NCBI GenBank assembly: GCA_035627515.1
Contig: DASPLQ010000012.1
Coordinates: 650,331 to 714,330 of the forward strand
Source of the DNA: Vitreimonas sp.
Lineage (GTDB): Bacteria; Patescibacteriota; Microgenomatia; UBA1400; PJMF01
Direction: 5' to 3'
Length of the DNA stretch: 64,000 nt
Part shown: positions 12,801-46,831 of the stretch, in pieces
How the letters are laid out: each line of letters starts with the position of its first letter
Numbering within the stretch: the first letter of the stretch is position 1
Position numbers and translations under genes: made by a program
Notes under the pieces: model-generated
The model's database searches: none
Told to the model about the DNA's origin: nothing
Seen by the model: the letters and a program-made list of their open reading frames with translations, nothing else

Positions 12801-12854
12801 GTGCTGTTTTTTATTCCCTCAAGGTTGGTAAAAAGTAATGTGTTAAGGATCTTT

Positions 12855-13889: not shown

Positions 13890-13979
13890 GGAAGCGTCGC
13901 ATAGTGGCCCAGTGCAACAGGTTGCTAACCTGTACCACAGAAATGTGGTTCGTGGGTTCGAATCCCACCGCTTCCGCCA
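13890..13979 (+). tRNA. tRNA-Ser (anticodon GCT), type II
   Basis: GGAAGCG acceptor stem, anticodon arm ACAGG-TTGCTAA-CCTGT, long variable arm, T-loop GGTTCGAATCC, discriminator G and encoded CCA. Confidence 0.85.
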
Positions 13980-14029
13980 CAATCGACAATCGAGCGTAGC
14001 TCGAATTGGCGAGTGTGGTGGGATATGCT
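13980..14029 (+). repeat. 50-nt tRNA 3' trailer, copy 1 (second copy at 55741-55790)
   Basis: CAATCGACAATCGAGCGTAGCTCGAATTGGCGAGTGTGGTGGGATATGC matches 55741-55790 with 2 mismatches. Contains the hairpin CGAGC-GTA-GCTCG. Confidence 0.6.
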
Positions 14030-14782: not shown

Positions 14783-16026
14783 TACACCAACGGCCCGGTT
14801 TCTACTGCCTCAAAGGCACTGCCGGGGATTGATTTCAACTGCTCCAATTCTTCATCGTTCCAGTTGGGATGTTGCTGACCACTGATATACCAATCACTGC
14901 CGTTGTCTGCCAGGATCATGCCATATTTTTTCAGCGCGGTAGCAATAACGCGAGCTTGGCCAGTTAAGTTGTTGATGTTGTAATCAGCTTTGAGCCGAAC
15001 TCTGAGGCCCATGGGTGGCAAGTTGGCATTGGTACTGCTGGATGCAAAATGAGTGGCGGGGTGAATAAAGGCTCGTTGTGAATTATTGACAGTAAAGCGA
15101 ATGGCGTGCTTAATTTCTCCCTGTGCGACTTCATCGTACCGGACGAGTCCAGGCAAGATCGGCAGCCCTGCCGCATCAGCTGACGTCCAGTATTGTGGAC
15201 GCAAGGCATTACTACTTAAATCAAAAATGGCGCCTGAGTCAGCATTCCAACTACTTGATTGAGGAAAGGCACGATAGAGCTCATACAATCGGCAGCTTTC
15301 AGTATTGAGGGCAATCACGTGACGGTCACCATCTGAGCTATTTCCACCCTCAATCGGGGCAGTGAGGGGAATAGGATACGGGCCTGGATCACTTTCGTCA
15401 CCATAAGCAGTAAAGTTAATGGGCGTCAAAGCTTGAGAGTTAGTGACGGTGATAAACGGAATGCCATAGGTTTCACCCCAGGTGGCGCCGCCAAAATCGG
15501 GATGAAGTTCTTCATTCGCTCCGATACTGGCAATGTAGCTAGCCGAGTTAGCATGGACAGGGTAACTGGAAATATCGGTGTTCCACGGATTGTTTGCTGG
15601 GAATATTTGGCAACCATTAATACTGGGTGCACCGGAAATAGGTGTCGCACTCGGGCTGGGGCTGGGAATTGGGGTGGGAGATGGTGAAGCTGATGGAGAG
15701 GGTTGTGGTGAGATTGAAGGTGAGGGCGAGGCAGCTGGGCTAGGAGTCGGCGCAGCTACACAGTCTTGTCCTAAAAATAAGAGAAACCATGAATAATCAG
15801 TTAAGTTCGTTTTACCGTCATGATTAATATCGGCTTGGGTATGGGTAGCGCTACTCAACGGAAAACTGTTGAGGAAAATAGTGTAATCAGGAAGATTAAC
15901 CTGGTGGTCTTGATTAAAGTCAGCATCGCAGGCAGTAGGGACTGCTTGAGCCTTTACCCCGACTGGTAGAAGCACATACATGAGTGTTACGATGAGCACT
16001 AAGCTAAGGATAAGATTCTTTTTCAT
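14779..16026 (-). CDS. secreted protein with N-terminal dockerin-like Ca-binding repeats, PS-linker and uncharacterised catalytic-like domain
   Basis: Signal peptide. CDADFNQDHQVNLPDYTIFLNSF...ADINHDGKTNLTDYSWFLLF is a duplicated dockerin type-I-like motif. Then SPSPSASPSPTPIPSPSPSATP linker. C-terminal domain (GMILADNGSDWYISG) not assigned. Confidence 0.6.
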   Translation of the reverse strand: MKKNLILSLVLIVTLMYVLLPVGVKAQAVPTACDADFNQDHQVNLPDYTIFLNSFPLSSATHTQADINHDGKTNLTDYSWFLLFLGQDCVAAPTPSPAASPSPSISPQPSPSASPSPTPIPSPSPSATPISGAPSINGCQIFPANNPWNTDISSYPVHANSASYIASIGANEELHPDFGGATWGETYGIPFITVTNSQALTPINFTAYGDESDPGPYPIPLTAPIEGGNSSDGDRHVIALNTESCRLYELYRAFPQSSSWNADSGAIFDLSSNALRPQYWTSADAAGLPILPGLVRYDEVAQGEIKHAIRFTVNNSQRAFIHPATHFASSSTNANLPPMGLRVRLKADYNINNLTGQARVIATALKKYGMILADNGSDWYISGQQHPNWNDEELEQLKSIPGSAFEAVETGPLVY

Positions 16027-20710: not shown

Positions 20711-20820
20711 TACTCAATAATAGAGGATGAAGATGGCTCTAAACAATATGTAAACTCGATATGTTCGCCTTTTCTTTGTCTCGTCGTAAGTGTAAGAAAT
20801 CTGTAAGATGTGTACCAGGC

Positions 20821-23800
20821 ATGGAAAAAGATCCACGCAGGAGTATTACGTTTCTCGGCATAAGCCGCAGCAAGCGCTTGTTTGCTGTCGGTTTAATTGT
20901 GGTGGCCATAATGCTTTTTTGGTATTGGGATGAGGGAAAAGGTTTACAAGCCAATCGTTCGCAGTCCTCAACTACCAAGCTGGCAGTAGCCACTAAAAAT
21001 GATCGTTCAGAAGGTGAAGTCTTGGCTGCCGAAACCGAAATTGAAGAATCAACTGCCATGTTCCAAGTTAACATTCCTAGTCAATTTGGGGATGTCGTCA
21101 GAGTTGCTGAATTGATTGTCGAAAATCGCTCTCTTTTTGAAGGAATAGCTGAGTTTCAAGATGAAGTAGTGATGAATCAAGCCCTGGAAGTCAAGCAAGA
21201 TTTGACGGTGGGCGGCCGCTTATTATTAACTGGTGATGCGATTGGCCGGGGAGTTGATATCGATATCGAAGACGGCGCCATTACTGCGGGCACCGTCACC
21301 GCGAGCAACTTAGTGTACTCTGTCAAAGCTGGTTCGGGCATTTCAGTAAGTGGTACTCAGGATGTCACCATTTCTGCTACAGATTTGGGTTCATCCCAAC
21401 AGATTTTTAAAAATATTAAAGTGAATAGCGATACCATTACAGCTGGTAGCAACAACGATACTGTTACCTTCAAAGATGGTACCGGTATTTCTCTGACACG
21501 GTCTGGCAATGAAATTACTGTCTCCGGTCGTGACGTCAGCGGTTGGGCTAAAACCGGCAACTATGTGGCGTTAGCTGACACGAGTAATTGGGTAGGAATT
21601 GGTACCAGTACTCCAACCAATAATTTGGAAATTAACTCAGGCACAACCGGCACTTCAGGAGTTACTTTCACTCAATTGACTTCAGCTTCCACCGTGGGTG
21701 TTGGAGGTGGCAAAGTTTTATCAGTTGATTCTGGTGGCCGGATTATTTTAGTTCAGGACCAAACTGGCGACACACCTACCGCTGAATCTGTATTGCCGAC
21801 TGCAGCCAATGGTGAAACCTTATATTTTAATGGACTGAACTGGGTGGCATCTTCCAACCTGTATCACAACGGTGGACAAGTGGGCATTTCCACCACACCA
21901 GCCACTAATGTGAGATTCCATGTTTTAACGAATGCTGCCAACGCCGTCGGTGCAGTTATTCAGCGCGTCACTGGCCAAACAGCCAATTTTATGGAGTTCC
22001 GCAATGAGAGTGGCACGCCATTGTCATACGTTTCGGCTGACGGTGTCTTCCACGGCAATGTCAGTGGTGATATCAGTGGCTCCATTAATGCTGGTCTCAG
22101 TCAGGGGCAAGTGGCTTTTCAAGGAGCGTCAGCTTTGCAAGGCAGTAACTCACTGTTTTGGGATAGTGGTAATAGCCGGTTGGGAGTGGGGACGAATGCT
22201 CCCCAGAAAGCCGTTCATATTTATAATGATTCTGGGCTGTGGGTTCAAAATACTTCTGGTGGTACTGCTTTAACTTCAATTACGGGTGGGTCAGTTAACA
22301 CACTTAACTCGACAACTTTATCTTTGGGGGCTAATGCTAATACTGCTATGACATTAATGTCTAGCGGCAACGTTGGCATTGGTACCACTTCGCCAACCTC
22401 CCTCTTCCATGTTAATGGCAAAACTACAGGCAAAGCACTAGCCATTCTCAACGAAACCGGTAATCAAGATATCTTTACAGCCAGTGCCAGTGGAACTTCG
22501 ATGTTCACCATTAAGAATGATGGAAAAGTGGGGATTGGGACGACTGCACCAACAGCACTACTTAATTTAAGCTCTAGTACTAGTGATCCAACTTTAATTA
22601 TTGATCCGGGGAGTAGCTCAACTGTGGATCCTACAATTGCTCTCTATGATACTACCACCAGTGCTGGTTTTAAAATTCGTTACGATAACGATGGAGGTGA
22701 CAGTTATATTGATAGCATTTTCAACGGTACTGATACGGCTCCAGCGATACGTTTCAGAACAGAGACATCAGCGGTAACAAAAGAAGCTATGACCATTACC
22801 CATGGAGGAAGTGTCGGTATCGGCACCACCTCACCCACCTCACTCTTGCATCTTTCATCAACCTCTACTAGTTTGACCAATGGTTTATTTAAGATGGATT
22901 GGAGTCCGGCTTCAGCCACTACGTTAGCGGGTGATTTGTTTAACCTTAATATTGGCGCTAATGGTAATGCGACCAATGTTTTTAGTATCACTGATTCAGG
23001 TTCGACCTTATTCTCAGTTAGTGAAAGTAAAATTACTTCAGCTATCCCGCATGAGTTTACAGTGGCAGGTGATGTCAGTTTTGGTTATGACATTAACTTA
23101 ATTAATCAAACTGCGGGCAATATTAATAGTAATGGTCCGTTTGCGATTAACGCTGGTGAGGTCTACGAAAATGGCACGCTCACTTTGCGCACGTATAACA
23201 AAGGTCGGGTGGTGGTGGATAGTGAAGCTCTGCTCGTGAATCGGGCAGCCACTATTTCTGGAAAGTTAGTAGCTGGAACTACTAATCCTCCCGTGGCGAT
23301 TGGTCAACTGTATGTGTCGAATGCCGCCACCTATGGTAAAGCTTTAGCCATTTTGAACCAAACTGAGTCGGCTGATATTTTTGCAGCCAGTGCCAGCGGG
23401 ACAAATAGATTTGTAATTACCAGCGCAGGCAGAGTAGGTATTGGAGTTGCTGCTCCAACAAATAACTTAGAGGTGGTAGGAACAAGTAAGATTTCTAGAG
23501 ATTCCAATAGTTATATTGAGTATAACTCCTCAGGTGAAATTCAATATTATTTAAGTGGTTTTAATAAATTTAAAGTTACTAATACAGAAACCTATGCTGA
23601 AGTACTCAGAGCTCCCACTATTAATATGGTTAATAATGGTGTGACGTTAGCGGCCACTGGCTCAGTATTTACTATTTCTAATAATTCTGGTGGCATGACT
23701 GAACGATTAAGAATTACCCAAAGTGGAAGCTTTGGCATGGGCACTAATTCCCCTGATGCGCGATTATCAGTAAATGGAGATTTATCTGCCAACTCTGCCA

Positions 23801-24834
23801 CTATTAGTGGCACGTATGCTGGCAATGTTGCGCTAACCATTAATGCGCTGACTGATGCCGACAGCACCATTCGTTTGCGTGAATCAGGGACTACTAAATG
23901 GAATCTTTTCAATGATGGCGATAATTCCGATAGTTTGTACATCACCGATGCCGGTGGTGATCAAGGTGTGTTCTTGGCTCAAGATGCGACGAGTTGGGCA
24001 GCAGCTTCTGATATTACGCTCAAAGAAAATATTAATTTAGTCGATGGCTCATTGGATAAAATCAAGCAACTGCGTGGCGTGTACTATAACTTCATTGGTA
24101 CGCAGCGGACTGAAGTAGGTTTGATCGCTCAGGAAGTGCAAGCGGTGCTTCCCGAATTAGTTGTCACTAATAATAATGGCAAGTTAGCTGTCATGTACGA
24201 TCGGTTGGCACCGGTGTTAGTGAATGCAATTCAAGAACAACAAGGCCAATTGGATAAACTAGGCAACTTTTCTACCTATGAAGATCGCTTAGCCGCAGTG
24301 GAAGCACAAAATACTGAACAAGATACTGTGCTTGCTCAACTTAAAACCACCTTAAGTGATTTATTTAAAAATGCAGTCACATTCTTAGCTGATGTCACCT
24401 TCAAAGGGTATTTGAAATTTAGCCCTGATCAAACTGGCTACGTAGCTGTCCCAGTGGGTGCCACTGAGGCTAAGGTGACCTTTAAAAACAAAATGCCTTC
24501 AGAACCAATTATTAACCTGACTCCACGCCGCCTCGTAGCCGGGATGAAAGTTGGGGAAGTTAAAGATACTCATTTTATTGTCCAGTTTGAACAACCACTG
24601 GCTGAAGAACTCAGAATTGATTGGTTAGCAACCTTGAAAGATACTGAAAACAGTAATGAGCCAACCGTTGAGTTTGTGATTCCTTCCCCAGTGCCTAATC
24701 TTGTTGTCCCTGAAGCCGCGGCTGCTGAACCGGCTGCCAGCCCCACTCCGGCGCCATCTTCAACTCCTGTCCCCACCGTGGCACCTTCATCAAGTCCTGA
24801 ACCAGTAGCTAGTGAGAGTGCCGCTACACCGTAG
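20821..24834 (+). CDS. giant membrane-anchored surface repeat protein, tail-fibre-like, with S74 intramolecular-chaperone autoproteolysis motif (paralog 1)
   Basis: N-terminal type-II anchor (RLFAVGLIVVAIMLFWYW). Repeated GxVGIGTTSPTSLxHV...KALAIxNETGNQDIFTASASGT modules. At nt 24004-24260, ASDITLKENINLVDG...GLIAQEVQAVLPELVV matches the tail-spike / endosialidase S74 chaperone motif. PS-rich C-terminus. Start placed at ATG 20821. Confidence 0.7.
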   Translation: MEKDPRRSITFLGISRSKRLFAVGLIVVAIMLFWYWDEGKGLQANRSQSSTTKLAVATKNDRSEGEVLAAETEIEESTAMFQVNIPSQFGDVVRVAELIVENRSLFEGIAEFQDEVVMNQALEVKQDLTVGGRLLLTGDAIGRGVDIDIEDGAITAGTVTASNLVYSVKAGSGISVSGTQDVTISATDLGSSQQIFKNIKVNSDTITAGSNNDTVTFKDGTGISLTRSGNEITVSGRDVSGWAKTGNYVALADTSNWVGIGTSTPTNNLEINSGTTGTSGVTFTQLTSASTVGVGGGKVLSVDSGGRIILVQDQTGDTPTAESVLPTAANGETLYFNGLNWVASSNLYHNGGQVGISTTPATNVRFHVLTNAANAVGAVIQRVTGQTANFMEFRNESGTPLSYVSADGVFHGNVSGDISGSINAGLSQGQVAFQGASALQGSNSLFWDSGNSRLGVGTNAPQKAVHIYNDSGLWVQNTSGGTALTSITGGSVNTLNSTTLSLGANANTAMTLMSSGNVGIGTTSPTSLFHVNGKTTGKALAILNETGNQDIFTASASGTSMFTIKNDGKVGIGTTAPTALLNLSSSTSDPTLIIDPGSSSTVDPTIALYDTTTSAGFKIRYDNDGGDSYIDSIFNGTDTAPAIRFRTETSAVTKEAMTITHGGSVGIGTTSPTSLLHLSSTSTSLTNGLFKMDWSPASATTLAGDLFNLNIGANGNATNVFSITDSGSTLFSVSESKITSAIPHEFTVAGDVSFGYDINLINQTAGNINSNGPFAINAGEVYENGTLTLRTYNKGRVVVDSEALLVNRAATISGKLVAGTTNPPVAIGQLYVSNAATYGKALAILNQTESADIFAASASGTNRFVITSAGRVGIGVAAPTNNLEVVGTSKISRDSNSYIEYNSSGEIQYYLSGFNKFKVTNTETYAEVLRAPTINMVNNGVTLAATGSVFTISNNSGGMTERLRITQSGSFGMGTNSPDARLSVNGDLSANSATISGTYAGNVALTINALTDADSTIRLRESGTTKWNLFNDGDNSDSLYITDAGGDQGVFLAQDATSWAAASDITLKENINLVDGSLDKIKQLRGVYYNFIGTQRTEVGLIAQEVQAVLPELVVTNNNGKLAVMYDRLAPVLVNAIQEQQGQLDKLGNFSTYEDRLAAVEAQNTEQDTVLAQLKTTLSDLFKNAVTFLADVTFKGYLKFSPDQTGYVAVPVGATEAKVTFKNKMPSEPIINLTPRRLVAGMKVGEVKDTHFIVQFEQPLAEELRIDWLATLKDTENSNEPTVEFVIPSPVPNLVVPEAAAAEPAASPTPAPSSTPVPTVAPSSSPEPVASESAATP

Positions 24835-24836
24835 TT

Positions 24837-27800
24837 ATGAAGTTACCCATTTTAAAATATTGGCGTAGTCAGTACCGAACATTTTTTTTTGCGTTGTTGA
24901 CTATCTTAAGCTTAGCGATTCCAGCGTGGTACCGATTACACTCACCTAGTGATGCCCGGGCCGGTTGGTTTAATGATCAATGGCAATATCGCAAACGCAT
25001 TCCGCTAACTAATAGTGGTGGCAGTACCGTCACTGACCACCAGGTTCAATTAACTATCGATACCGCCGCGCTTGTTACCTCCGGCAAACTCCAAAGCAAC
25101 TGTGTTGACCTCCGTCTTAACGCTCAAAACACTGATTTTTTGCCATATTGGATTGAACCAGGAACGTGCAATACGACAACCACTAAAGTCTGGGTTCGTG
25201 TCCCTGAAATTCCTACCACTGGTGCAAATATTTGGCTGTACTACGGTAATCCCTCAGCGCTGGATGAATCGAGTGCGGAGCGGGTGTTTCATGCCATTCT
25301 CAAAAACCAGGCGGCAGCCTGGAATATGGATGACAATGTTTCTGGTAATGGTCAAACAATTACCGATGTTAGCGGCAATAGTCGAACAGGTACTATTGTC
25401 GGTTCAGTGAACTGTACAGGTACTGGTCAATTTGATAAAGCCTGTTCACTAACTAGTGGTGGGTATATTGATACTTTTGATACCGGACTTTCAAATCAAT
25501 TAAGTATTTCAGTATGGATTAAGCCCACTTCTGTAGCAACTGCACAAGCAATTATGGGTGAACGTTCGGGAACTAACAGCTGGGCGCTCTATGTTCGACC
25601 CACTGGGGAACTAGGATTCACTTTAAGTGGTTTATCTGATCACATTACAACCGGAGCAGGAGTGACAGCGGGAGTTTGGCAACACGTATTGGTAGTAGTT
25701 AATGGCACTAGTTTAAAAATGTATCGCAATGGAACCCTAGTCAGCGATGTCACTATGGGAGCAACAGTTGCCGACTCTAACCTAACTATGAAAATTGGTG
25801 CTGCAGGTGGTGCTACTAGTCCATATACAGGTGAGATAGATAACCTGCGTTTGTATTCACGGGCTTTCAATGCTGAAGAAATACAACAATTATTAGGCCC
25901 AACCGCAAATTCTCGATATGGATATATGACAAATAACTTGGTAGGCAATGAATTGGTTACAGGTTACAACACTAATGTTACGACTGGCTCACAACAGACT
26001 GAGGAAACAAGTCCACGGCCGATTGCAGTTTGGAATTTTGATGAGGGTAGTGGACAAACTATTAATGATGTCGTGGTGAAAAAAAATCAAGCCATGTTAG
26101 GTGCTAATAGCTCTTCGGCATCAGATGACCCTACCTGGCAAACTGAGGATATGTGTATCAGTGGTAAGTGTTTACGGTTTGATGGTACCAATGATTATGT
26201 CCAAGTGAACAATAATATTAGTACTCAAATAGGCACTGCAGTCACATTTTCGGCTTGGATTAGAACTAATTCGAGTAACAATCCGATGTCGATTATGGGT
26301 AATTACAATTCCGCGGTAGCAGGAGGACCATGGTTTGAAGTGCTGGCAGGTAAAGCGGCTTTCCATAATGGTAGTTCCGGAACTTTAAGTAGTAATAAAT
26401 CAGTTAATGATGGTAAGTGGCATCATGTGGTGGCTACAGTTGGGCCCTCCGATGCAAAGATCTATGTCGATGGCAGTTTAGATAACTCATCAACTTCTTT
26501 TTCACTTTTGAAAACATCCACAACTGCCTATGCCATTGGTGCGGTCTATGCATCTAGTGCTCCCAGTTCATTCTTTAATGGCTTCATTGATGAGCCCAAA
26601 ATTTATCCCTATGTGCGGACAGCTGCCGAAGTCAGGCAAGATTACATTCGGGGTTTAACGAGTGCAGGTGCTAATGCCGCGTTGGGTGTGCCGGAAACCA
26701 GCCATTTAAATAATGGCTTAGCAGCCTACTGGAAAATGGATGAGAGTAGCTGGAATGGGACCAGCTCGGAAGTGATTGATTCGAGTGGTAATAATAATCA
26801 CGGAACTGCGGGCTGCAATGGCGGGTGTGTGGGTTCACCTCCTAGTACTAGTACCGGTAAATTTGGCAATGCGGGTTATTTCACGGTGACAGGCAGTAAC
26901 TATCAGAGGGTTAGTGTGCCTTCTTCTAGCACTTTGCAGATCACTTCAGCAATAACGCTCTGTACTTGGGTTAATGAAGTAGGTACCAACTTTAATGGAT
27001 ATGTGCTTGATGCTAACACGTATCGTTTACAAATGAACTCTGGCGGTAGTATCGATATGCGGGTGACTACTGGCGGTGTCTCAACCGCCTCGCCAAATAG
27101 TGGTACTCTACCCACTAACACTTGGGTGCATATCTGTGGGACCTATGATGGTAGTAAGGTTAGTTTATATAGAGATGGCAGCTTAGTGGGATCAACAGCC
27201 AAAACAGGTACTATTGATACTATCAGCAGTCCAGTTATTAATAATGCTACTGGTGCAACTCGCAACTTAAAATTAGATGAATTCCGTATTTATAACCGAG
27301 CTCTTTCGCCCGCCGAAGTCCAAGATCTCTACGCGTGGACCGCTGGACCGGTGGGGCACTGGAAGTTCGATGAGGGGGAGGGTACGACTGCGAATGATGC
27401 CAGTGGCAATGGCTTAACGGGAACAATTACTTCTGGGACCCAGTGGAGTGAAGGAAGATTTGGCAGCGCACTCAATTTTGATGGGACTCAGCTAGTTCTT
27501 ATCGGTAATTCTGCTCCAGTTCAATTAGGAACGGGTACAGTAGAAGCCTGGATCAAAACCACTAATGCCGGTAGTTCTTTCCGTGGTATCGTAGTTAAGC
27601 AAAACGCCTATGGCATGTTTTTAAATGATAATGTGTTCGGAAGCTATGATTGGGGAGGGACTGGTTTTAATAGTAGTGGCTTAAGTCTTAATGATGGTCA
27701 ATGGCATCATGTCAGTATGACTTTTGATGGCAGTAATAGTACCACCAACTTATATCTTGATGGTACTTTGGTTGACACAGGCAATAACACTGTCTCAGGT

Positions 27801-29981
27801 CATAACACGAGTTTGAGTATTGGGTCCGGTACTGGTGGAGTTAGTCAGACTTTTATTGGCAAAATTGATGATGTTAAACTCTACAACTACGTTCGGACCA
27901 GAGAACAAGTTTTGTTGGATATTAAAGCCAACCGGCCGGCCGCATTGGGGGCACAGGATTCGGTTCCGCCTCCACTTGCCCACTGGAAGTTTGATGAAGG
28001 TAATGGTACCAGTAACGCCGATAGCAGCGGGAATGGCTATACCCTAACTATGGAAAACTCTGAAGGTGATGAGTGGGCGAGTGGCAAATTAGGCTCAGGC
28101 CTACAGTTTGATCGTAATAATGAGCGAGCAGCTCGGGCGGATACCACAGGCTCACCTTTTGATTTAACTCAAGGCACTCTTTCTGCTTGGGTATATCGGA
28201 CTGGACAAGTAAGTGGTTCGGGCAATCAGGGGCGGATTATTAGTAAAGCTGATTTATATGTGCTATTTCTCAATAGTGATGAAGAAGTTCAGTGTTATGG
28301 CAATGGGAGTACCTTGGATTCAAACTACGTCTTACCTCTTAATCAATGGTCACATGTGCTGTGTACGCAAGATTCAGCGAGTACAACTAAAACCCGTAAA
28401 ATTTATGTTAATGGCGTAGAAGTTGCTTCAAGTACCCCAGCTAGTGCGTGGAGTGTTGATAATAATCCTTTGACAGTTGGTAATTATTTTACTGATGGCT
28501 ACTTTTTCCCTGGTTACATCGATGAAGTTAAAATGTGGAACATACCTTTGAATACCGATCAGATTGCGTATGAAGCTAATATCCGATCTGCTGACGTGCT
28601 TGCTTATCAGGCAACCAGTACCGAACAAACTCAAGATGTTGGTTCCAGTAATCCGCCAATAGGTGAGTGGAATTTTGATGAAATGACAGGTGCTACAGCC
28701 AATGATCTCGGGGCAAATGGCTTTGATGGCACGATTACTAACGCAACTTGGGTGCCTGGCCAAATTGGTGGCGCACTCGATTTTGCTGGTAATGCTTGTG
28801 TGTCTACTTCGACTTCTTCAACTCTCAACCCTACTTCCACTATGACGGTGGAAACGTGGGTGTATCTAAATGCCAATCAAGGTTCGTTTGCTTCATTAAT
28901 TTCACGAGATGGCGAATCGGCAGCGCGGGCGTATTCAATAGAACTAGGTAATGCCGGTACGAATCGTTTGAGAGTGTGGTTTGGCGCCGGTGGCAGTCCC
29001 AAAGTAGTTGATTCTACTTCGGCTTTGGCCCTCAACCAGTGGTACCACATTGTGGGGACCTATGATGGCTCTAGTGTGAAGTTGTACATCAATGGCAGAT
29101 TAGATAACAGTTTAAGCACTTCCGGCACGATCACTACTAACACTGACACTTTAGCATTTGGCTGTAGCAGCCAACTCAATGGCGAGTACTTCAACGGTAA
29201 GCTCGATCACGTCAAAATCTACAACTACGCTCGCAGTCAAGCTCAAGTGGCCTATGATTACAACCGCGGTAAACCAATTGCGCACTGGAAAATGGATGAG
29301 TGTCAGGGGACTACAATTTATGATGCTTCGGGAAATAATAATCATGGCACGTTAACAGTCACCGGCCAATCAGTGGGAACCTGTGACACTAGTTCCACAG
29401 CTTGGGGTAGCGGGGCGACAGGAAAATATAATGCTAGCATTAACTTAGATGGTACTGGAGATGAAATTAGCATAGGAGATCCAAGTTCAGGTATTTTTGA
29501 CTTTGGTACTCGAGACTTTACATTAAGTGCGTGGGTCAAAACAACAAGCGGCGAACAAAGCATTATCTCAAAGCAAATAGCTAACACCTGGAACGGTTAC
29601 AATTTTTACATTATGCCTGATGGTAAATTAATTAGCAGTGTTTCCTGGCTTAATAATGGCGCAACCAGTTCTATCACCAGCACCAATAGTGTGAATGACG
29701 GAACATGGAAACATGTGGTGTTTGTCATGAATGGGGCTGATAGAACAAACTGGAAACTCTATATCAATGGTCAAGCTGACAGTTTTACTGAAGCAGGGTC
29801 AGATTTATCAGGTACTGGTATTGATAATACTGTCCCCCTAAGAATTGGTAATCGTGAATATAACGATGCCACTGACTTTATTGGCCAAATCGACGACGTC
29901 AAAGTCTTCAATTACGCTCTCTCTACCGCCCAAGTTCGCAAAGAGTACAACGCGGGGTCAGCGATTTATTTTGGTAATTAA
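24837..29981 (+). CDS. 1714-aa secreted protein: DUF2341-like N-domain followed by about 7 tandem LamG (concanavalin-A-like) domains
   Basis: N-terminal TM/signal. VWVRVPEIPTTGANIWLYYGNP resembles DUF2341. Seven LamG C-terminal beta-strand signatures: IDNLRLYSRAFNAEEIQQL, IDEPKIYPYVRTAAEV, LDEFRIYNRALSPAEVQDLY, IDDVKLYNYVRTREQV, IDEVKMWNIPLNTDQI, LDHVKIYNYARSQAQV, IDDVKVFNYALSTAQV. Confidence 0.7.
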   Translation: MKLPILKYWRSQYRTFFFALLTILSLAIPAWYRLHSPSDARAGWFNDQWQYRKRIPLTNSGGSTVTDHQVQLTIDTAALVTSGKLQSNCVDLRLNAQNTDFLPYWIEPGTCNTTTTKVWVRVPEIPTTGANIWLYYGNPSALDESSAERVFHAILKNQAAAWNMDDNVSGNGQTITDVSGNSRTGTIVGSVNCTGTGQFDKACSLTSGGYIDTFDTGLSNQLSISVWIKPTSVATAQAIMGERSGTNSWALYVRPTGELGFTLSGLSDHITTGAGVTAGVWQHVLVVVNGTSLKMYRNGTLVSDVTMGATVADSNLTMKIGAAGGATSPYTGEIDNLRLYSRAFNAEEIQQLLGPTANSRYGYMTNNLVGNELVTGYNTNVTTGSQQTEETSPRPIAVWNFDEGSGQTINDVVVKKNQAMLGANSSSASDDPTWQTEDMCISGKCLRFDGTNDYVQVNNNISTQIGTAVTFSAWIRTNSSNNPMSIMGNYNSAVAGGPWFEVLAGKAAFHNGSSGTLSSNKSVNDGKWHHVVATVGPSDAKIYVDGSLDNSSTSFSLLKTSTTAYAIGAVYASSAPSSFFNGFIDEPKIYPYVRTAAEVRQDYIRGLTSAGANAALGVPETSHLNNGLAAYWKMDESSWNGTSSEVIDSSGNNNHGTAGCNGGCVGSPPSTSTGKFGNAGYFTVTGSNYQRVSVPSSSTLQITSAITLCTWVNEVGTNFNGYVLDANTYRLQMNSGGSIDMRVTTGGVSTASPNSGTLPTNTWVHICGTYDGSKVSLYRDGSLVGSTAKTGTIDTISSPVINNATGATRNLKLDEFRIYNRALSPAEVQDLYAWTAGPVGHWKFDEGEGTTANDASGNGLTGTITSGTQWSEGRFGSALNFDGTQLVLIGNSAPVQLGTGTVEAWIKTTNAGSSFRGIVVKQNAYGMFLNDNVFGSYDWGGTGFNSSGLSLNDGQWHHVSMTFDGSNSTTNLYLDGTLVDTGNNTVSGHNTSLSIGSGTGGVSQTFIGKIDDVKLYNYVRTREQVLLDIKANRPAALGAQDSVPPPLAHWKFDEGNGTSNADSSGNGYTLTMENSEGDEWASGKLGSGLQFDRNNERAARADTTGSPFDLTQGTLSAWVYRTGQVSGSGNQGRIISKADLYVLFLNSDEEVQCYGNGSTLDSNYVLPLNQWSHVLCTQDSASTTKTRKIYVNGVEVASSTPASAWSVDNNPLTVGNYFTDGYFFPGYIDEVKMWNIPLNTDQIAYEANIRSADVLAYQATSTEQTQDVGSSNPPIGEWNFDEMTGATANDLGANGFDGTITNATWVPGQIGGALDFAGNACVSTSTSSTLNPTSTMTVETWVYLNANQGSFASLISRDGESAARAYSIELGNAGTNRLRVWFGAGGSPKVVDSTSALALNQWYHIVGTYDGSSVKLYINGRLDNSLSTSGTITTNTDTLAFGCSSQLNGEYFNGKLDHVKIYNYARSQAQVAYDYNRGKPIAHWKMDECQGTTIYDASGNNNHGTLTVTGQSVGTCDTSSTAWGSGATGKYNASINLDGTGDEISIGDPSSGIFDFGTRDFTLSAWVKTTSGEQSIISKQIANTWNGYNFYIMPDGKLISSVSWLNNGATSSITSTNSVNDGTWKHVVFVMNGADRTNWKLYINGQADSFTEAGSDLSGTGIDNTVPLRIGNREYNDATDFIGQIDDVKVFNYALSTAQVRKEYNAGSAIYFGN

Positions 29982-29989
29982 GCTTTCCT

Positions 29990-32071
29990 TTGCAGTACTT
30001 ACCTAATCTGTTACTATGGATACAGATGTCAACCGTGGATTCATTTACCCAGCGCGTCATGAACATGATTCTGCCAGCAATGGCGATCATAGTCCCGATA
30101 GTGTTTGTGCCGCTGAGCACAGATTTTTTTACCACCAGTAAAAAAATAGTGTTATTGGTGGTGGCTTCGGTAGCAATTTTGGCTTGGACATGGCGCGGAG
30201 TGCTACGTAAAAAATTTGATTTTTATATCAGTCCAGCCACGGCGCCACTCATTATTTTGTGCATTTTATATGGTGTTTCGACGGCGTTTAGAGCCCCCAA
30301 CTTTTGGCTAGCATTAACTGGTGAAACGACACTTTTTTTAACATTAAGTGTGATTTTTTTAACGGTAACGGCTCTTTTAAAAGAGCAGGCGGTGTTAGTC
30401 CGTACCTATCACTCGTTATTACTCTCTGCCTCTGTTGTGTCCCTGATTGTGATACTGCAATTTTTTAAAATTGGCCAGTTACTGACAGCAGTTCCTTGGT
30501 TAGAAACGCCGTTATTTAATCCCACTGGTGGTCCGCTCACCTTTTTATCTCTCAGTGTGCCTCTCATTGCAGCCAATGCTGCTTTCTTGTATCGTCACCA
30601 GCCACGGCCAAAGCCATTTTATTTTCTGACGACCTTATTATTGGTGGTTGCCTCGTTATTAACAGTGGCTTTATTAGTGATGGAAAAGTTGCAACTAATG
30701 CCGTTGACTGCAGCCTGGGTGATTGGAATCGGGGCCTTACAAAATCCTGGAGTGGCATTATTGGGAACAGGTCCCGGCACCTATGCCGATGTTTATACGC
30801 AGCTTAAACCGGCTTTTATGAACATGACGCCCACTTGGAATGTGGTTTTTTCTAGTTCAGTTAATTATTTCTTTCAACTACTCACTACGGTTGGGTTACC
30901 CGCAGTAGCTTTATATTTATATGCCTTAGGGAGCACTCTCGCAGCCGCCAGCCGCCAGCTCACGAAAAACCGATGGCTCAAAGTTTACACGGCTTTGCTA
31001 CTTAGTTGCGTGGGAATGCAACTCATTTTGCCTCCCAACTTAATGTTAATGTTGATAGTGTTCATCAGTTTGAGTTTAGTGACAATTGAGTTAAAAATAA
31101 CTCAGCTCTCTGCAACCCTTAATCCTTTGCAGAGTAGTGCGGCCCAGATGTTGGGAGCGCCGCGGCGCTTTTGGGAGCAACGATTTGGGGCACATGAACA
31201 AAAATTAAGCTTGTTGTTTTGGTTTATGGGTTTGGTGATTACTGGCGGAGTGCTTTTTTATAATTACGTCCTGGCCCGCGCCTATGCCAGTGAGATAGTT
31301 TTTTATCGCTCTTTGCAAGCCGCGGATCAAAACAATGGCACCGCCGTTTATAACCTTCAAGTCCAAGCCATTAACTTAAAACCATATGAGCCCCAGTATC
31401 ATTTGGCATATGCTCAAACGAATCTCGCGTTAGCTGAGTCATTGGCAGCAAAAAGTGAGGTTAATGATCAAGACAAAGCCACTATTACCCAATTAATTGA
31501 ACAAGCTATCCGAGAAGCTAAAACTGCGGTGCAGTTACAACCGACCAATAGTTTGGCGTGGCAAAACCTAGCGGCTATTTATCGGCAACTGATTGGTTTA
31601 GCTGATGGAGCAGATGAATGGACATTGACGGCTTATCAACAGGCTATAGCCTTAGATCCTAGTAATCCTCAGCTACGCCTAGATTTGGGTGGAGTTTTTT
31701 ATTCGGTAAAAAATTATGGTGAAGCTGTAGGCTACTTTACCCAAGCCGCTCAACTTAAACCCGACTGGGCTAATGCCTATTACAACTTAGCAATGGCGTA
31801 TCGCGATGGCGGAGAGCCGCAACTAGCAGTCCAAGCCATGCGTGTAGTAGCCGAACTCATTGATCCTACGAGTACCGAGTATCAACAAGTGCAAACAGAG
31901 CTCAAAGCTTTAGAAGCTGATTTGCCGACAGAAATAACCCCACCTCAGCCTTTACCAGTCAGTGATGACACAGAAGAGGAAGAAGTACTCACGAAGCCTT
32001 CACCATTGCCTTCACCTACTTTGAAAGAGGAAATCGAACTTCCGGCTGATGTAGCCCCAAATTCACCCTAA
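29990..32071 (+). CDS. O-antigen-ligase-like (Wzy_C) polytopic membrane protein with C-terminal TPR repeats
   Basis: At least 10 TM helices, with a periplasmic-loop GIGALQNPGVALLGTGPG. C-terminal TPR-like repeats (AYYNLAMAYRDGG, LAWQNLAAIYRQL). Confidence 0.6.
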   Translation: MQYLPNLLLWIQMSTVDSFTQRVMNMILPAMAIIVPIVFVPLSTDFFTTSKKIVLLVVASVAILAWTWRGVLRKKFDFYISPATAPLIILCILYGVSTAFRAPNFWLALTGETTLFLTLSVIFLTVTALLKEQAVLVRTYHSLLLSASVVSLIVILQFFKIGQLLTAVPWLETPLFNPTGGPLTFLSLSVPLIAANAAFLYRHQPRPKPFYFLTTLLLVVASLLTVALLVMEKLQLMPLTAAWVIGIGALQNPGVALLGTGPGTYADVYTQLKPAFMNMTPTWNVVFSSSVNYFFQLLTTVGLPAVALYLYALGSTLAAASRQLTKNRWLKVYTALLLSCVGMQLILPPNLMLMLIVFISLSLVTIELKITQLSATLNPLQSSAAQMLGAPRRFWEQRFGAHEQKLSLLFWFMGLVITGGVLFYNYVLARAYASEIVFYRSLQAADQNNGTAVYNLQVQAINLKPYEPQYHLAYAQTNLALAESLAAKSEVNDQDKATITQLIEQAIREAKTAVQLQPTNSLAWQNLAAIYRQLIGLADGADEWTLTAYQQAIALDPSNPQLRLDLGGVFYSVKNYGEAVGYFTQAAQLKPDWANAYYNLAMAYRDGGEPQLAVQAMRVVAELIDPTSTEYQQVQTELKALEADLPTEITPPQPLPVSDDTEEEEVLTKPSPLPSPTLKEEIELPADVAPNSP

Positions 32072-32131
32072 AAATTCGCCTTTTCTTTGTCTCGCGGTGA
32101 GTGTAAGAACTCTGTAAGATGTGTACCAGGC

Positions 32132-35100
32132 ATGGAAAAAGATCCACGCAGGAGTATTACGTTTCTCGGTTTAAGCCGCAGCAAGCGCTTGTTTGCTGTC
32201 GGTTTAATTGTGATGGCAGGAATAGCATGGTGGTCGATCCGACCAAACAGGCTTCTCGAGCCCAGTGGTGATCAATTGGCAGTCGCACAGGGAAAAAGCG
32301 TAGGCTCTGGTCGAGTTCTAGGTACTGACACCGAAGAGATTACCCCAGCCACGTTTCAAGTCCAAGTGGCGACAGTGTTCTCAGATGTGGTGAGGATCGC
32401 AGAGTTGAGTGTGGCAGAAGGTTCAGTGTTTGCAGGGCTGGCTGAGTTTCAAGATGAAGTCATCATGCGCGCCAATGCTGAAGTAAGAGGTGATTTAACA
32501 GTTGGTGGGCGGTTAATTTTGAATGATGATGCGTTTGGCAATGACATTGATATCGATATCGAACAAGGCACCATCACTGCTGGCACCGTCACCGCCGATA
32601 ACTTAGTCTACTCAGTTAAAGCTGGCTCGGGCATTTCGGTCAGTGGCACACAGGACGTGACTATTTCCGCCACTGATTTAGGTTCTTCGCAAAAGATTTT
32701 TAAAAACGTTAAAGTCAATAGTGACACCATTACAGCAGCCAATAATGAAGACACCCTCACCCTCAAAAATGGTTCTGGTGTTAACTTATCTCGATCCGGC
32801 AATGAAATTACTTTTGCCAGCGATAACATTAGTGGCTGGGTGCGCTCAGGTAGTTATGTGGCCTTGGTAGATGCTACCACTTCCGTAGGTATTGGGACCG
32901 CTACCCCCACCAATAAACTGGAAATCAATTCCGGTACCACTCACACTTCTGGTCTCACCTTTAGTCAAATGACGTCTGCCTCTACGGTCGGGGTTGGGGG
33001 CGGTAAAGTATTGTCAGTCGATTCTGGTGGCCGAGTGATTTTAGTGCAGGACCAAACGGGTGACACTCCCGATGCAGAATCAGTTTTGCCTTCTACAACT
33101 ACTGGTGGCACCTTATATTTCAATGGCCTGAACTGGGTAGGCAGCACCAATCTCTATCACAATGGTGGTCAAGTGGGTATTTCCACTACACCTGCTGCCA
33201 ACTCACGTTTTCATGTTCTAACGAATGCCGTGGATAAGGTTGGGGCAGTGATTCAGCGCGTTGTTTCTCAGACGGCAAATTTGTTAGAGTTTCGTGATGA
33301 AAATGGTAATGCGCTGAGTTATTTTGATGAAGAGGGCGTTTATCATGGTGAAGCAGAGTTAACGGGCTCGATTACTGGCTCTATTAACCCTGGTTTAGTC
33401 CAAGGACAAGTAGCTTATCAAGGAGCTTCTGCTTTGGCTGGTAGCAACTCATTATTTTGGGATGCTGGTAACTCGCGCTTAGGGATTGGAACTAATGGGC
33501 CTTCTTCTCAGTTACACCTCAACTCAAGTACAGACGGGACAACTACTGGCATTACTTTAGCTAGCCAATACAACACGCTCAAGCTGTATGGCCGAGGTAA
33601 CTCACCAGCTAGCTCAGTTATCGAATCGAGCGGGAGCTTTCCAGGAATCACTTTTAGAACTGGTTCTAGTCCTGCTGATCGTATGTACTTAGATCTGGTT
33701 GGTAAATTAGCACTAGGGCACACTTCACCAGTGGGCTTATTTGATGTCAGTGGCAAGGTCACCGGTAAAGCTCTAAATATTCTTAACGAAACCGGTAACC
33801 AAGATATTTTCACCGCCTCGGCTTCAGGAACTTCACGGTTCACGATTAAGAATGATGGGAGTGTGGGTGTAGGCACAGTGAGTCCAAGTCAGGCCCTACA
33901 TGTAGTTGGTAATTTAGCCGTCGAAGGTGTGGAAACTGGGACAGGAGGCATAGCTGAAAATAGTGGACGCATTAGAGTTGGGAATCGAACTAATGGAGGT
34001 GTGACCACGAAATACTTAGAAATGTGGAGTAACTGGGATACCCCTGTTATTCAAAGTGTTGGATATGGGCAGCCCTTATCTATCACTTCATCAACTGGTC
34101 GAATAAGCATGAATCCTATTAGCTCAGGGGGTACGGCCACTAATTCGAACAATATGATTTTTTTGAGAGTGGGTCATGGGGCAGGGAGTACGAGTAACGT
34201 CAGTCCGGCAATAGCTGGTTCAGGAGGGCTTGGTGTCTGGGCCAGTGATATTAACTCTAGTTTACTGATTATTGATACTTCAACAGCTGGGCATAATCGC
34301 CCTCTGATTGAAGCCAGCGAGGCAACGGTATCTCGTCTCTATTTGCATCAGGATGGTCGGTTAGGTCTCAATAACAGTTCACCAACTGGCACCTTACACG
34401 TTGTGACTGGTTCAACAGCTGGTAAAGCATTGACAATTTTTAATGAAACCGGTGATCAGAATATTTTGACTGCTTCAGCCTCCGGTACCACGCGGATGGT
34501 TTTAACTAATAATGGGCTGTTAGGAGTGGGAACAACTTCTCCGACTTCCAGAGTCCACGTTCAAGGGGATTTAGCCGTGACCGATGGATCTGGTAATCCA
34601 GGTATACTGAGAATTGGTACCAATGAAAAAGGCCTCCTGTATTTGACTGGTAGTACCTTAGCTCTTCAAAGTAATAATTATCCTATTACTATTCAATCAA
34701 TCGGAGGTGCTTTTGGTGGATATATTCGTTTCAATCTAGGTGGAACTGAAGCCATGAGATTAACAAGCGCCGGGAATTTTGGCATTGGAACTACCGCTGC
34801 AACTTCGCCACTACATGTTAACGCTGGGTATGGCTCAAATGCCTTGGCTGCTTTCAATCAACTCAATGGTGGTGACATTCTGACAGCTAGCGCCAGTGGT
34901 ACTACCCGGATGGTGTTAAGTAATGCTGGGCGGTTGGGATTAAACACTCTTACTCCAGGCGCCTTAGGTGATTTTGCCGCTCCTACGAGTACGGTTGGTT
35001 TGATTGTTAGAGCTACTGCTTCCGGCGGACAGAATGCTCAAGAGTGGTACAACAATGGTAATTCTTTAACAGCGGCTGTTAACAATCAAGGTAGCTTTTA

Positions 35101-46795: not shown

Positions 46796-46831
46796 CACAT
46801 ATACTTTTACATATGCAAACCGAATGAACTC

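Follow-up and report, generated by a model that had tools for sequence, protein, structure and literature searches.

A near-identical patch of promoter-like and anchor-coding DNA at the start of two modular, apparently old fibre-gene paralogues

Introduction

Two giant genes, here called A and D, lie on the same strand of the window (the whole 64,000-nt stretch of DNA that was analysed) in what is probably a small bacterium of the Patescibacteria type. A preliminary description, made from the sequence, had credited them with a near-identical leader and a shared N-terminal module of about 470 codons, and had proposed recent duplication together with either recombination between the copies or a cassette-style variation mechanism. 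The locus thus raises the question of how two genes with different ends came to share their beginnings, and whether the arrangement serves to vary surface proteins. The reading that we favor, at a probability of roughly 0.6, is that A and D are modular fibre paralogues of old standing and that a 143-nt piece, made up of promoter-like and anchor-coding DNA, was later copied between them by homologous recombination.

Results

Genes A and D lie in an array together with genes B and C; its features are as follows.

20821-24834, + strand: gene A, 1337 aa, fibre protein anchored at its N-terminus and ending in a self-cleaving chaperone tail (S74)
24007-24162, + strand: Peptidase_S74 domain of A (Pfam PF13884, E = 2.1e-14; 54 bits, cut-off 22)
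24837-29981, + strand: gene B, 1714 aa, DUF2341 plus seven LamG/concanavalin-like domains
29990-32071, + strand: gene C, polytopic membrane protein with C-terminal TPR repeats
32132-36394, + strand: gene D, 1420 aa, paralogous fibre protein without S74 (NCBI HYD35105.1, hypothetical protein)
35420-35851, + strand: non-S74 tail module of D (residues 1097-1240, '...TTLSPHNFSL...')
35852-36181 in D and 24361-24636 in A, + strand: C-terminal domain of about 110 aa, common to S74 and non-S74 members in a 17-member alignment

Gene A is on record as HYD35102.1, annotated 'tail fiber domain-containing protein'; its product is homologous to the Bd2133 fibre (E = 3e-8), matches PHROG tail-fibre families and carries the S74 motif SDITLK from residue 1063 (SDxxxK motif search). 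Gene B, whose exact protein is also on record, starts 2 nt after A. For gene C the public call is a protein of 681 aa, with which the start would be at 30026; some of its homologues carry a Wzy_C/O-antigen-ligase domain, and its orthologue in locus L023 likewise stands behind a fibre-head gene. A-B-C does not stand out in composition. Between the ATP synthase genes and the LytR_C gene lies a slot whose fibre arrays differ from genome to genome.

Near-identity between A and D turned out to be confined to a short patch.

20764-20906, + strand: patch copy 1, promoter-like region plus gene A codons 1-29 (repeat family D2)
32075-32217, + strand: patch copy 2, ending at gene D codon 29 (repeat family D2)

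The copies align by blastn over 143 nt at 95.1% identity, with 7 mismatches and 0 gaps; the window has no third copy (0 expected by chance), and the two lie 11,311 nt apart on the + strand as direct repeats, whose exact stretches measure 59 and 41 nt. The 5' end falls 4 nt beyond the stop codon of gene C (32069-32071), so further extension would be impossible without damaging C. The 3' end, at codon 29, falls midway in the hydrophobic helix LFAVGLIVVAIMLFWYW, which a low-confidence model places at residues 16-36, and such a stop inside a transmembrane helix suggests a breakpoint rather than a domain border. Both copies are genuine and not products of the assembly, since an independent short-read contig (Logan SRR7003767_2882, L022), identical to window positions 20872-32140 at 100%, joins the copy-specific variants to their own flanks. 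At either end this contig breaks off within an exact stretch of the repeat, once in each copy, and in it the first 66 nt of copy 2 are contiguous with the end of gene C.

Beyond the patch the two genes part abruptly and then become alike again.

21058-22200 in A (residues 80-460) and 32354-33496 in D (residues 75-455), + strand: conserved head, 72.7% amino-acid identity
22409-22532 in A and 33744-33867 in D, + strand: conserved island past the head, 75% nucleotide identity (blastn), a beta-helical fibre repeat unit

Over a linker of about 180 nt (codons 30-80) no similarity can be detected in the DNA, and amino-acid identity is about 30%; this most diverged stretch (dN 0.83) adjoins the patch end. 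The head that follows aligns at only 70.8% in DNA (21091-22172 against 32384-33471, blastn), although the peptide first quoted as common to both proteins, VYSVKAGSGISVSGTQDVTISATDLGSSQ[Q/K]IFKN[I/V]KVNSDTITA, is indeed in A and D. Pairwise alignment does have sharp identity boundaries, but the claimed near-identical module shrinks to the 143-nt patch, followed by an unalignable linker and a head at about 71%. Protein identity falls from 0.87 to 0.27 (30-codon windows) near residue 455-460, in keeping with the earlier picture of a conserved head and divergent distal parts. Past it lies the island GKALAILNETGNQDIFTASASGTS.FTIKNDG.VGIGT, a homologue of the fibre repeat of Bd2133 (E = 4e-16), and the last 150 or so residues are alignable again at about 30%.

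The two shared regions differ strikingly at synonymous sites. Over the head (codons 81-460) dN is 0.20 and dS about 2.3, which is saturated, for a dN/dS of about 0.09; over patch codons 1-29 dS is 0.11, from about 20 synonymous sites. At identical residues the same codon is used in 25 of 27 cases in the patch and in 127 of 277 in the head (Fisher p = 2.3e-6). With saturated synonymous sites and purifying selection, the head does not look like a recent duplicate, contrary to the preliminary description; it is best read as an old, selectively conserved module of about 380 codons.

The upstream 57 nt of the patch contain the following elements.

20764-20783, + strand: upstream motif TTCGCCTTTTCTTTGTCTCG of gene A, 20 nt (identical in the D copy, 32075-32094)
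20804-20809, + strand: putative -10 box TAAGAT of gene A, 11 nt before the ATG (D copy 32115-32120)
20791-20808 and 32102-32119, + strand: direct repeat TGTAAGA-N4-TGTAAGA, overlapping the putative -10 box

The pattern TTCGCnTnTTyTTyGysT-N22-TAnnnT precedes fibre genes in L001, L024, L025/L026 and L002 (twice) and was found nowhere else in the window or the 27 loci searched. It amounts to seven instances in five genomes, with the TAnnnT box at offset 41-46 from the motif start in every one. The window motif matches the L025 instance at 19 of 20 positions, and in L001 and L024 motif and box are kept and the spacer has diverged; the motif is clearly under selection across genomes. A consensus sigma-70 scan of this region gave no -35/-10 pair. 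Shine-Dalgarno sites are nearly absent across the genes of the window, where boxes of the TAnnnT type often stand just before the ATG. Given this, and the recurrence of motif, spacer and box before fibre genes, the 57 nt are probably a promoter rather than a leader with a ribosome-binding site, and the latter half of the original promoter/RBS proposal is probably wrong. A -10 box 11 nt from the ATG would imply a leaderless or very short-leader mRNA.

Homologues in other genomes, which are small and probably of the Patescibacteria type, suggest a common plan for the family. In it, a short cytoplasmic tail is followed by a single transmembrane anchor, a linker that varies and a conserved proximal head of about 380 residues; beta-helical 'GIGT' repeats come next, their number differing between members. 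Then stands either of two tail modules that are unrelated to each other (the S74 chaperone in A, the 'LSPHNFS' module in D), and after it the common C-terminal domain of about 110 residues and a Pro/Ser/Thr-rich tail. The C-terminal domain is 28-30% identical between A and D, with only weak hints of an H-type lectin. The head stands at the N-terminus of about 17 cluster representatives; within a genome heads are 73% (A-D) or 80-84% (X1-X3) identical, against 50-58% between genomes. Nothing in A matches the tail module of D, which is 66-78% identical to the module in P0033, P0035, P0041 (BroJett032) and to that in P0040, P0042 and P0044; the S74 module of A is 32-39% identical to relatives in other genomes. 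Heads thus cluster by genome and tails across genomes, which points to module shuffling. The anchors are not conserved: paralogues X2/X3 of BroJett032 and G1-G3 of L025 have no DNA similarity there, despite heads that are 69-79% identical.

Discussion

A and D appear to be old paralogues encoding giant, tail-fibre-like surface proteins with a common conserved base and different tips. Their distal differences would reflect shaft and tip modules exchanged among paralogues, with the head held by purifying selection, presumably since it docks the fibre at the cell surface, and the different tips may serve attachment to host or prey cells. The grouping of heads by genome could result from lineage-specific duplication with tail swapping rather than from homogenisation of the heads. 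What the architecture of the two genes records is ordinary modular adhesin evolution and not a switching device.

Onto this background the patch would have been added. It would comprise the family's promoter-like element (20-nt motif, 22-nt spacer and -10 box) and the first 29 codons, copied by homologous recombination long after A and D diverged. That the copying came later is indicated by a dS of 0.11 in the patch against about 2.3 in the head, and recombination between the copies, which the preliminary description had raised, best accounts for these figures (Fisher p = 2e-6). The copy was most likely made by short-tract gene conversion; the same direct repeats would also arise from unequal crossing-over, or if a circle with the patch, the A body, B and C had been inserted. 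Copying probably went from A to D, as the ATP-synthase-proximal position held by A carries this promoter in other genomes; D, sited behind B and C, would thereby have gained a promoter of its own along with the membrane anchor of A. No close relative carrying both A and D was found, the nearest being about 50% identical in protein.

Purifying selection on a cis-regulatory element, acting at the nucleotide level, is the alternative that survives best, though we consider it unlikely. On this view both copies would date from the original duplication and have been unable to change since. They would consist of a promoter and an early-coding RNA structure, such as a hairpin close to the start codon that serves for attenuation, for stabilisation or for translation control. 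A candidate for such a structure is present.

20861-20895, + strand: stable predicted hairpin, gene A codons 14-25 (identical in D, 32172-32206)

Its free energy is -20.9 kcal/mol (z = -4.15), no other 46-nt window of A or D is as stable, and it was flagged as terminator-like. It holds two G-U pairs and so would work on the sense strand only. Four of the seven mismatches between the window copies fall in the promoter spacer, and none of the seven touches the motif, the -10 box or either predicted hairpin, a pattern that nucleotide-level selection would also produce; the selected upstream motif fits as well. Our reasons for preferring recombination are that: (i) selection of this kind leaves 25 of 27 identical codons unexplained, though it does account for motif and -10 box; (ii) the L001 and L024 orthologues and the X2/X3 and G1-G3 paralogues have unrelated anchors and no consistent hairpin, with z of -0.9 to -2.5 among the orthologues tested; (iii) the patch ends abruptly in mid-helix, beside the most diverged stretch; (iv) the RNAalifold consensus is biased toward unpaired mismatch columns, and a fold of A alone pairs two of the seven mismatches and (v) there was no match to an Rfam family. 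An unusually stable hairpin may still be functional in itself.

Rather less probable is the idea that a recombination-based variation system operates through the direct repeats, exchanging cassettes without a dedicated recombinase. RecA-type exchange would delete or amplify the 11.3-kb A-B-C segment and so change which fibre is expressed from the array promoter; alternatively, incoming patch-bearing circles would integrate behind a fixed promoter and anchor. The exact stretches are long enough for homologous recombination, judging from known minimal pairing lengths, the repeats sit exactly where promoter and anchor meet the gene body, and the variety of arrays in the ATP synthase-LytR_C slot is what such a system might leave behind. 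Against this, the sole independent contig has the same arrangement and no variant or recombinant contig was seen; a 5% divergence between the repeats speaks against frequent exchange, and A-B-C is unremarkable in composition. Nor does the cassette mechanism first suggested find a basis here: there are two direct copies only, each on a complete gene with its own promoter-like region and start codon. The window holds no inverted copy of the patch, we found no silent cassette, and a scan of its open reading frames of at least 130 aa, bar three overlapping longer ones, gave no recombinase, transposase or reverse transcriptase.

A recent duplication of the whole gene, followed by fast distal divergence or diversifying selection that left a 470-codon module nearly unchanged, is improbable in the extreme. 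The heads of A and D are each other's closest relatives, as it would predict, but their synonymous sites are saturated at a DNA identity of just about 70%, and the tails are non-homologous, with closer relatives elsewhere than in the sister gene. As for a collapsed or chimeric repeat, the record is a metagenome-assembled genome and short-read contigs do break in the repeat, but seven differences separate copies that are each contiguous with unique flanks, and both reading frames pass straight through the patch into their own gene bodies, so that this explanation may be dismissed.

In predicted build, the family to which A and D belong resembles the MAT (mosaic adhesive trimeric) fibres of Bdellovibrio bacteriovorus and the tail fibres of phages. 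The MAT study (Caulton et al. 2024, Nat Microbiol, PMC10769870; PDB 8ond for Bd2133, 8oml, 8ojn) describes members with and without S74, an N-terminal domain that is conserved and tips that are swapped, as in Bd2133/Bd1334, where tips have been exchanged and the N-terminal or fibre part is still about 75% identical. Both families are large (about 1000 aa or more) surface fibres with many paralogues, a cell-proximal conserved N-terminal domain and beta-helical repeats, which here are sequence-homologous to those of Bd2133 (E = 4e-16), and both include members ending in S74 (SDxxxK) and members that do not; a life on other bacteria may be a further likeness if it holds for the window organism. 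The window family belongs to another phylum and has an uncleaved-looking transmembrane anchor and a head of about 380 residues, where MAT fibres have a signal peptide and a domain of about 130 residues. It also has the extra domain of about 110 residues and Pro/Ser/Thr tail behind the S74 or non-S74 module, and its genes stand in tandem at a single conserved locus, with an upstream motif of their own. A shared DNA copy of promoter plus anchor does not figure for MAT genes in the sections of the MAT study that were searched.

S74 tail fibres and tailspikes of phages (endosialidase-type; PF13884; PHROG) follow the same logic of conserved proximal and variable distal parts, with GIGT-type beta-helical repeats and an S74 domain with its Ser-Lys motif. 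Viral contigs match only the repeat part of the family, and the head (residues 80-460) had no match in 50,697 phage records or IMG/VR. Unlike phage fibres, the proteins here are predicted to be anchored in the cell membrane, and their array lies between ATP synthase and housekeeping genes with no phage genes around.

With regard to the shared 5' DNA, the vpma, vsp and vsa systems of Mycoplasma also have highly conserved upstream DNA (a 5' untranslated region) and N-terminal signal-peptide codons on otherwise divergent surface-protein genes at one locus (PMC2268961). They differ in having one promoter, several silent genes, inverted recombination sites and an adjacent DNA-inverting Xer-type recombinase, whereas here there are two direct copies, each with a promoter-like region, and no recombinase among the scanned reading frames of the 64 kb. 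Short-tract gene conversion between bacterial paralogues is a general phenomenon, e.g., tufA/tufB and the opa genes. As in such concerted evolution, the patch has abrupt borders and is much less diverged at synonymous sites than the sequence flanking it; it differs in that the tract is very short and consists of regulatory DNA and a targeting signal rather than a conserved gene body.

The fibre paralogues A and D share a short, nearly identical patch

Genes A and D, the giant fibre-protein paralogues, are the outer members of four tightly packed genes on the + strand:

20821-24834, + strand: gene A, 1337 aa, HYD35102.1, annotated "tail fiber domain-containing protein"
24837-29981, + strand: gene B, 1714 aa, DUF2341 and seven LamG domains
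29990-32071, + strand: gene C, polytopic membrane protein with TPR repeats
32132-36394, + strand: gene D, 1420 aa, HYD35105.1, annotated "hypothetical protein"

When the A region was compared with the D region by blastn, 20764-20906 aligned with 32075-32217 over 143 nt at 95.1% identity, with 7 mismatches and no gaps (the patch); 21091-22172 aligned with 32384-33471 at 70.8% and 22409-22532 with 33744-33867 at 75%. The linker between the patch and the conserved head module (residues 80-460 of A), comprising codons 30-80 or about 180 nt, is essentially unalignable between A and D, and at the patch border identity falls from 95% to about 40% across a few nucleotides. Two copies of the patch are present in the window, in direct orientation and 11,311 nt apart; both lie on the + strand with no reverse-strand match in the window, and no match was obtained in shuffled sequence. 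The preliminary description had presented the 5' leader and a module of some 470 codons as near-identical in the two genes. This holds for the 143 nt but not for the module, which is 70.8% identical at the DNA level and follows an unalignable linker; the peptide quoted there does occur in both A and D, and the abrupt loss of identity was confirmed near residues 455-460.

An assembly artefact can be rejected as the origin of the two copies, because an independent Logan short-read contig (L022, identical to window 20872-32140 at 100%) reaches into both and joins copy-specific variants to each copy's own flanks. L022 ends inside exact stretches of both copies, which also settles the question of whether short reads are ambiguous across the shared DNA. 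The practical consequences are that short-read assemblies break at the 143-nt repeat and that automated annotation labels one paralogue as "tail fiber domain-containing" and the other as "hypothetical". Exact protein look-ups found B on record and returned no record for A or D.

Divergence of the patch and the head

Codon alignment of A with D gave dN 0.03 and dS 0.11 for codons 1-29, and dN 0.20 and dS about 2.3 for codons 81-460, a saturated value with dN/dS of about 0.09. Where the two proteins have the same residue, they use the same codon at 25 of 27 positions in the patch versus 127 of 277 in the head (Fisher p = 2.3e-6). Given its saturated dS and low dN/dS, the head is an old duplicate kept by purifying selection, and the recent duplication earlier proposed for the ~470-codon module is not compatible with these values. 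The patch alone shows a recent common origin or else extraordinary nucleotide-level constraint. Compared with the homologous sequence on its flank, the patch has a far lower dS (0.11 against about 2.3), and its borders are abrupt, the pattern by which gene conversion is recognized. The nearest relatives, namely the comparison contigs L001, L024 and L025 and the genome of Patescibacteria group bacterium BroJett032, are about 50% identical with unrelated anchors, and none is close enough for orthologue trees of the tract.

We favor the possibility, to which we assign a probability of roughly 60%, that the paralogues had long been diverged when one of them received the promoter and first 29 codons of the other through homologous recombination. 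The likeliest route would be short-tract gene conversion, and the more likely direction would be from A to D, since A occupies the ancestral promoter position beside the ATP synthase genes; in this way D, situated behind B and C, would have come by a promoter to itself and the same anchor as A. An identical trace would be left by unequal crossing-over or by a patch-bearing circle that integrated, and either may have taken place instead.

The patch as a putative promoter and membrane anchor

Fibre genes in five genomes are preceded by a bipartite element, an 18-20-nt motif (TTCGCnTnTTyTTyGysT) that is followed, after a spacer of exactly 22 nt, by a TAnnnT box. While the spacer varies freely, TAnnnT is found at offset 41-46 in all seven instances (window A, window D, fibre gene G1 of L025, L001, L024, and fibre genes X2 and X3 of BroJett032). 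No further instance of the pattern occurs in the window or among the 27 comparison loci, a result that is partly circular as the pattern was derived from the same sites. Two observations argue for selection on the element: (i) in L001 and L024 the sequence has diverged in the spacer and just before the ATG, yet both motif and box are retained, and (ii) the motifs of the window and L025 are identical at 19 of 20 positions despite only about 50% identity between the proteins. A and D each possess the full motif, a -10 box and an ATG; four of their seven mismatches fall in the 22-nt spacer, whereas the motif, the box and the 11 nt leading up to the ATG contain none. The distance from the box (TAAGAT) to the ATG is 11 nt in the window and 7 nt in L001 and L024.

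Shine-Dalgarno sites are absent from nearly all window genes, and in many of them a TAnnnT box precedes the start codon by 6-12 nt (48 ORFs, upstream 30 nt), which suggests that leaderless or short-leader mRNAs are widespread in this organism. With the box so near the ATG and Shine-Dalgarno motifs scarce, we infer that the "leader" is a promoter from which a leaderless or short-leader mRNA would be transcribed. A consensus -35/-10 scan found no canonical -35 hexamer 16-18 nt 5' of the -10 box at either copy, so the promoter reading is a comparative one; 22 nt separate the conserved motif from the -10 box. An Rfam scan of the whole window returned nothing at either patch. Overlapping the putative -10 box is a direct repeat, TGTAAGA-N4-TGTAAGA, with an 11-nt period (20791-20808 and 32102-32119), whose copies differ only in the 4-nt spacer and which is absent from the other genomes; it could be a regulator-binding site.

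The coding part of the patch specifies a charged N-terminus and half of a hydrophobic helix (LFAVGLIVVAIMLFWYW), so the patch ends in mid-helix and not at a domain border; the 5' end of the D copy is 4 nt past the stop codon of C. In L025 the motif stands before the first gene of the array only. The anchors of the paralogues in BroJett032 and L025 are unrelated in DNA and N-terminal sequences vary across the fibre family, which indicates that the homogenized anchor is peculiar to this genome.

The foremost alternative to a recombinational copy, if unlikely in our estimation, is that nucleotide-level selection on a regulatory element keeps the 143 nt alike. What speaks for such selection is a terminator-like hairpin at 20861-20895 (codons 14-25), which at -20.9 kcal/mol (z = -4.15) is unusually stable; no other 46-nt window in A or in D is as stable. 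However, the hairpin has no consistent counterpart in orthologues, for which reason we did not adopt it as a family feature, and selection acting on it would leave unexplained both the codon identity over all 29 codons and the abrupt mid-helix border. RNAalifold on the two copies reported no covariation, although with 7 differences none could be seen; it placed all mismatches at unpaired positions, but this result is biased by the method.

Architecture of the A and D proteins

Residues 1063-1114 of A match Peptidase_S74 (PF13884; E = 2.1e-14, 54 bits against a gathering cut-off of 22) and contain, from residue 1063 on, the Ser-Lys motif SDITLK. D has no PF13884 match and carries a different conserved module instead. 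A matches many PHROG tail-fibre families, and phmmer searches of the PDB matched whole A (E = 3e-8) and whole D (E = 1.5e-11) to the mosaic adhesive trimeric (MAT) fibres of Bdellovibrio bacteriovorus, the structures matched by both being 8ond (Bd2133), 8oml and 8ojn; 8on4 was also among the hits. With a 120-aa query, residues 527-600 of D matched 8ond at E = 4e-16; the conserved island beyond the head is thus a repeat unit of the fibre with homology to Bd2133. An AlphaFold model of the head (residues 1-590, 3-sequence alignment) had a pLDDT of 34 and could not be used. Both proteins also have a C-terminal domain that is common to S74 and non-S74 members and, in A, sits beyond the predicted S74 cleavage site:

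24361-24636, + strand: C-terminal domain of about 110 residues in A
35852-36181, + strand: C-terminal domain of about 110 residues in D

Against the PDB and Pfam, a profile of this domain gave nothing beyond sub-threshold hints of an H-type lectin: a relative matched Pfam H_lectin at E = 0.024, and Helix pomatia agglutinin was hit at E = 0.78. By repeat homology, A and D are classed with MAT-type or tail-fibre-type trimeric adhesins, and their surface location and adhesin role are predicted.

Pro/Ser-rich low-complexity coding repeats at 15650-15696, 36224-36270 and 45617-45657 are common to D and to two secreted-looking proteins encoded at 14779-16026 (dockerin domain) and 44803-45963 (CARDB domains). 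There is also a sortase gene close by (9037-9735).

Modular evolution and the genomic slot of the family

Exhaustive profile searches found the full head at the N-terminus of about 17 cluster representatives of 1180-1950 aa and fibre repeats in thousands of proteins, and we therefore rejected the reading that this is a rare family. A word-indexed protein search gave one true homologue with the head and none with the first 45 residues; such a search skips A, D and other giant family members although they are in the collection, which makes apparent rarity misleading for very long proteins. A search of 50,697 phage records with the head returned nothing; in IMG/VR, contigs matched the fibre-repeat part only, and neither the motif nor the patch had a match there.

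Heads group by genome, being 73% identical between A and D, 80-84% among the three BroJett032 genes and 50-58% between genomes, and S74 and non-S74 tails are mixed within head clades. Modules in BroJett032 and L025 genes match the tail module of D, residues 1097-1240, at 66-78% identity, and A contains nothing comparable; A in turn carries an S74 module that is 32-39% identical to those of other S74 members and resembles nothing in D. The C-terminal domain of A is closest to that of the family protein P0040 (47%, versus 28% to D). Simple duplication and divergence of A and D cannot produce a common head joined to unrelated tails and was rejected, so at least one recombination must have joined them, by either tip swapping or head homogenization.

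The fibre array occupies a syntenic slot with ATP synthase genes (minus strand) on one side and a LytR_C gene on the other (LytR_C in the window and L025). Its contents in four loci are as follows:

window 16309-37170: A-B-C-D
L025 1-19826: three overlapping fibre genes
L027 4355-14860: a toxin-antitoxin module, then one S74 fibre
L001 5283-11764: one fibre gene at the contig end

Directly upstream of the C orthologue in contig L023 (1-462) is a gene for a short protein that consists of the start of a fibre head followed by a stop. C thus seems to accompany fibre genes in at least two genomes and may be an accessory factor. Contigs that contain C or its orthologue end 64-70 nt past the C stop (L023 2541-2604, the contig of protein P0010, and L022 11201-11269). 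As three independent contigs stop there, the DNA just downstream of C may be repeated in relatives too; the motif is absent from the L023 sequence downstream of C.

The organism itself is probably a member of the Patescibacteria, its nearest genome match being BroJett032. The public label, Vitreimonas, is an alphaproteobacterial genus and likely a mislabel; the sortase, the LamG giants, the lack of Shine-Dalgarno sites and the kinship with BroJett032 point to Patescibacteria.

Is the array a variation system?

The preliminary description also raised a cassette-style variation mechanism. A programmed cassette or phase-variation system seems to us improbable: the direct repeats themselves are what it has in its favor, and against it there is no inverted copy, silent gene or variant contig. 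Furthermore, a Pfam scan of window ORFs of at least 130 aa, bar three overlapping longer ORFs, found no recombinase, integrase, resolvase, transposase or reverse transcriptase. The composition of A-B-C shows no anomaly relative to its flanks.

We hold as a long shot the idea that the 143-bp repeat is an active, recombinase-independent exchange module that inserts, excises or amplifies whole fibre-gene bodies (A + B + C). The promoter and membrane anchor would stay fixed while swaps took place behind them in the ATP synthase/LytR_C slot, and the in-patch hairpin might be a recombination hotspot or a shared attenuator; if this were true, an episymbiotic Patescibacterium could change its host-attachment fibres. 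Explanations based on a diversity-generating retroelement (DGR), a shufflon or invertase, or a transposon were rejected, as no such enzyme turned up among the ORFs scanned and there is no inverted repeat, and a repeat search of A and D found no pair resembling a DGR template and variable repeat.

Other features of the window

Five tRNA-Ser genes lie within the 64 kb (2037-2128, 6554-6637, 13890-13979, 46713-46796 and 55653-55740), with the anticodons CGA, TGA, GCT, ACT and GGA; the ACT anticodon (wobble A, loop TTACTAA) is unusual for bacteria. The stretches 13947-14028 at tRNA-Ser(GCT) and 55708-55789 at tRNA-Ser(GGA) are 96% identical over 82 nt and constitute a second short high-identity patch in this genome. 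The 5' halves of the two tRNAs differ, and the shared stretch extends about 50 nt past their 3' ends (trailer CAATCGACAATCGAGCGTAGCTCGAATTGGCGAGTGTGGTGGGATATGC). An FMN riboswitch at 12633-12779 (82 bits, gathering score 66) is directly 5' of an EamA-family transporter gene (12801-13787); the transporter probably takes up riboflavin, with the riboswitch controlling it.

Significance and relation to known systems

The finding stated first is of modest importance: adhesin paralogues have evolved in the usual modular way, and one short segment, the putative promoter with the anchor, was probably copied between them by recombination. Such fibres are of a known kind, to which the locus adds another member; no description of tail-fibre-like adhesins in Patescibacteria was found in the literature searched. 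How ultrasmall episymbiotic bacteria recognize and bind their hosts is largely unknown, according to PMC12206443. The locus supplies candidates for host binding, namely an array of MAT-like, tail-fibre-like surface fibres whose tips are exchangeable, together with an S74 chaperone and a dedicated upstream motif that is strongly conserved, and its syntenic slot occurs in several genomes of 1.1-1.4 Mb.

There is precedent for shared 5' regions in the vpma/vsp families of Mycoplasma, whose members have the 5' UTR and signal peptide in common (PMC2268961). [quoted passage not shown]

The comparison with the MAT family goes further. As described in the published account (PMC10769870), that family comprises 21 paralogues in S74 and non-S74 subfamilies, all with a conserved N-terminal domain following the signal peptide, and tips have been swapped between paralogues that are still 75% identical in their N-terminal or fibre part (Bd2133/Bd1334). 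A and D follow this pattern in their split into S74 and non-S74 members and in distal parts that may likewise have been swapped; they also have a conserved head near the N-terminus. They differ in three respects: (i) the MAT N-terminal domain is a beta-rich domain of about 130 aa directly after the signal peptide, whereas the A/D head is larger, comes to about 380 aa and lies beyond a transmembrane anchor and a linker; (ii) A and D have an extra C-terminal domain beyond the S74 or non-S74 module; and (iii) genes of the A/D type stand in tandem in a syntenic array that has its own putative promoter motif.
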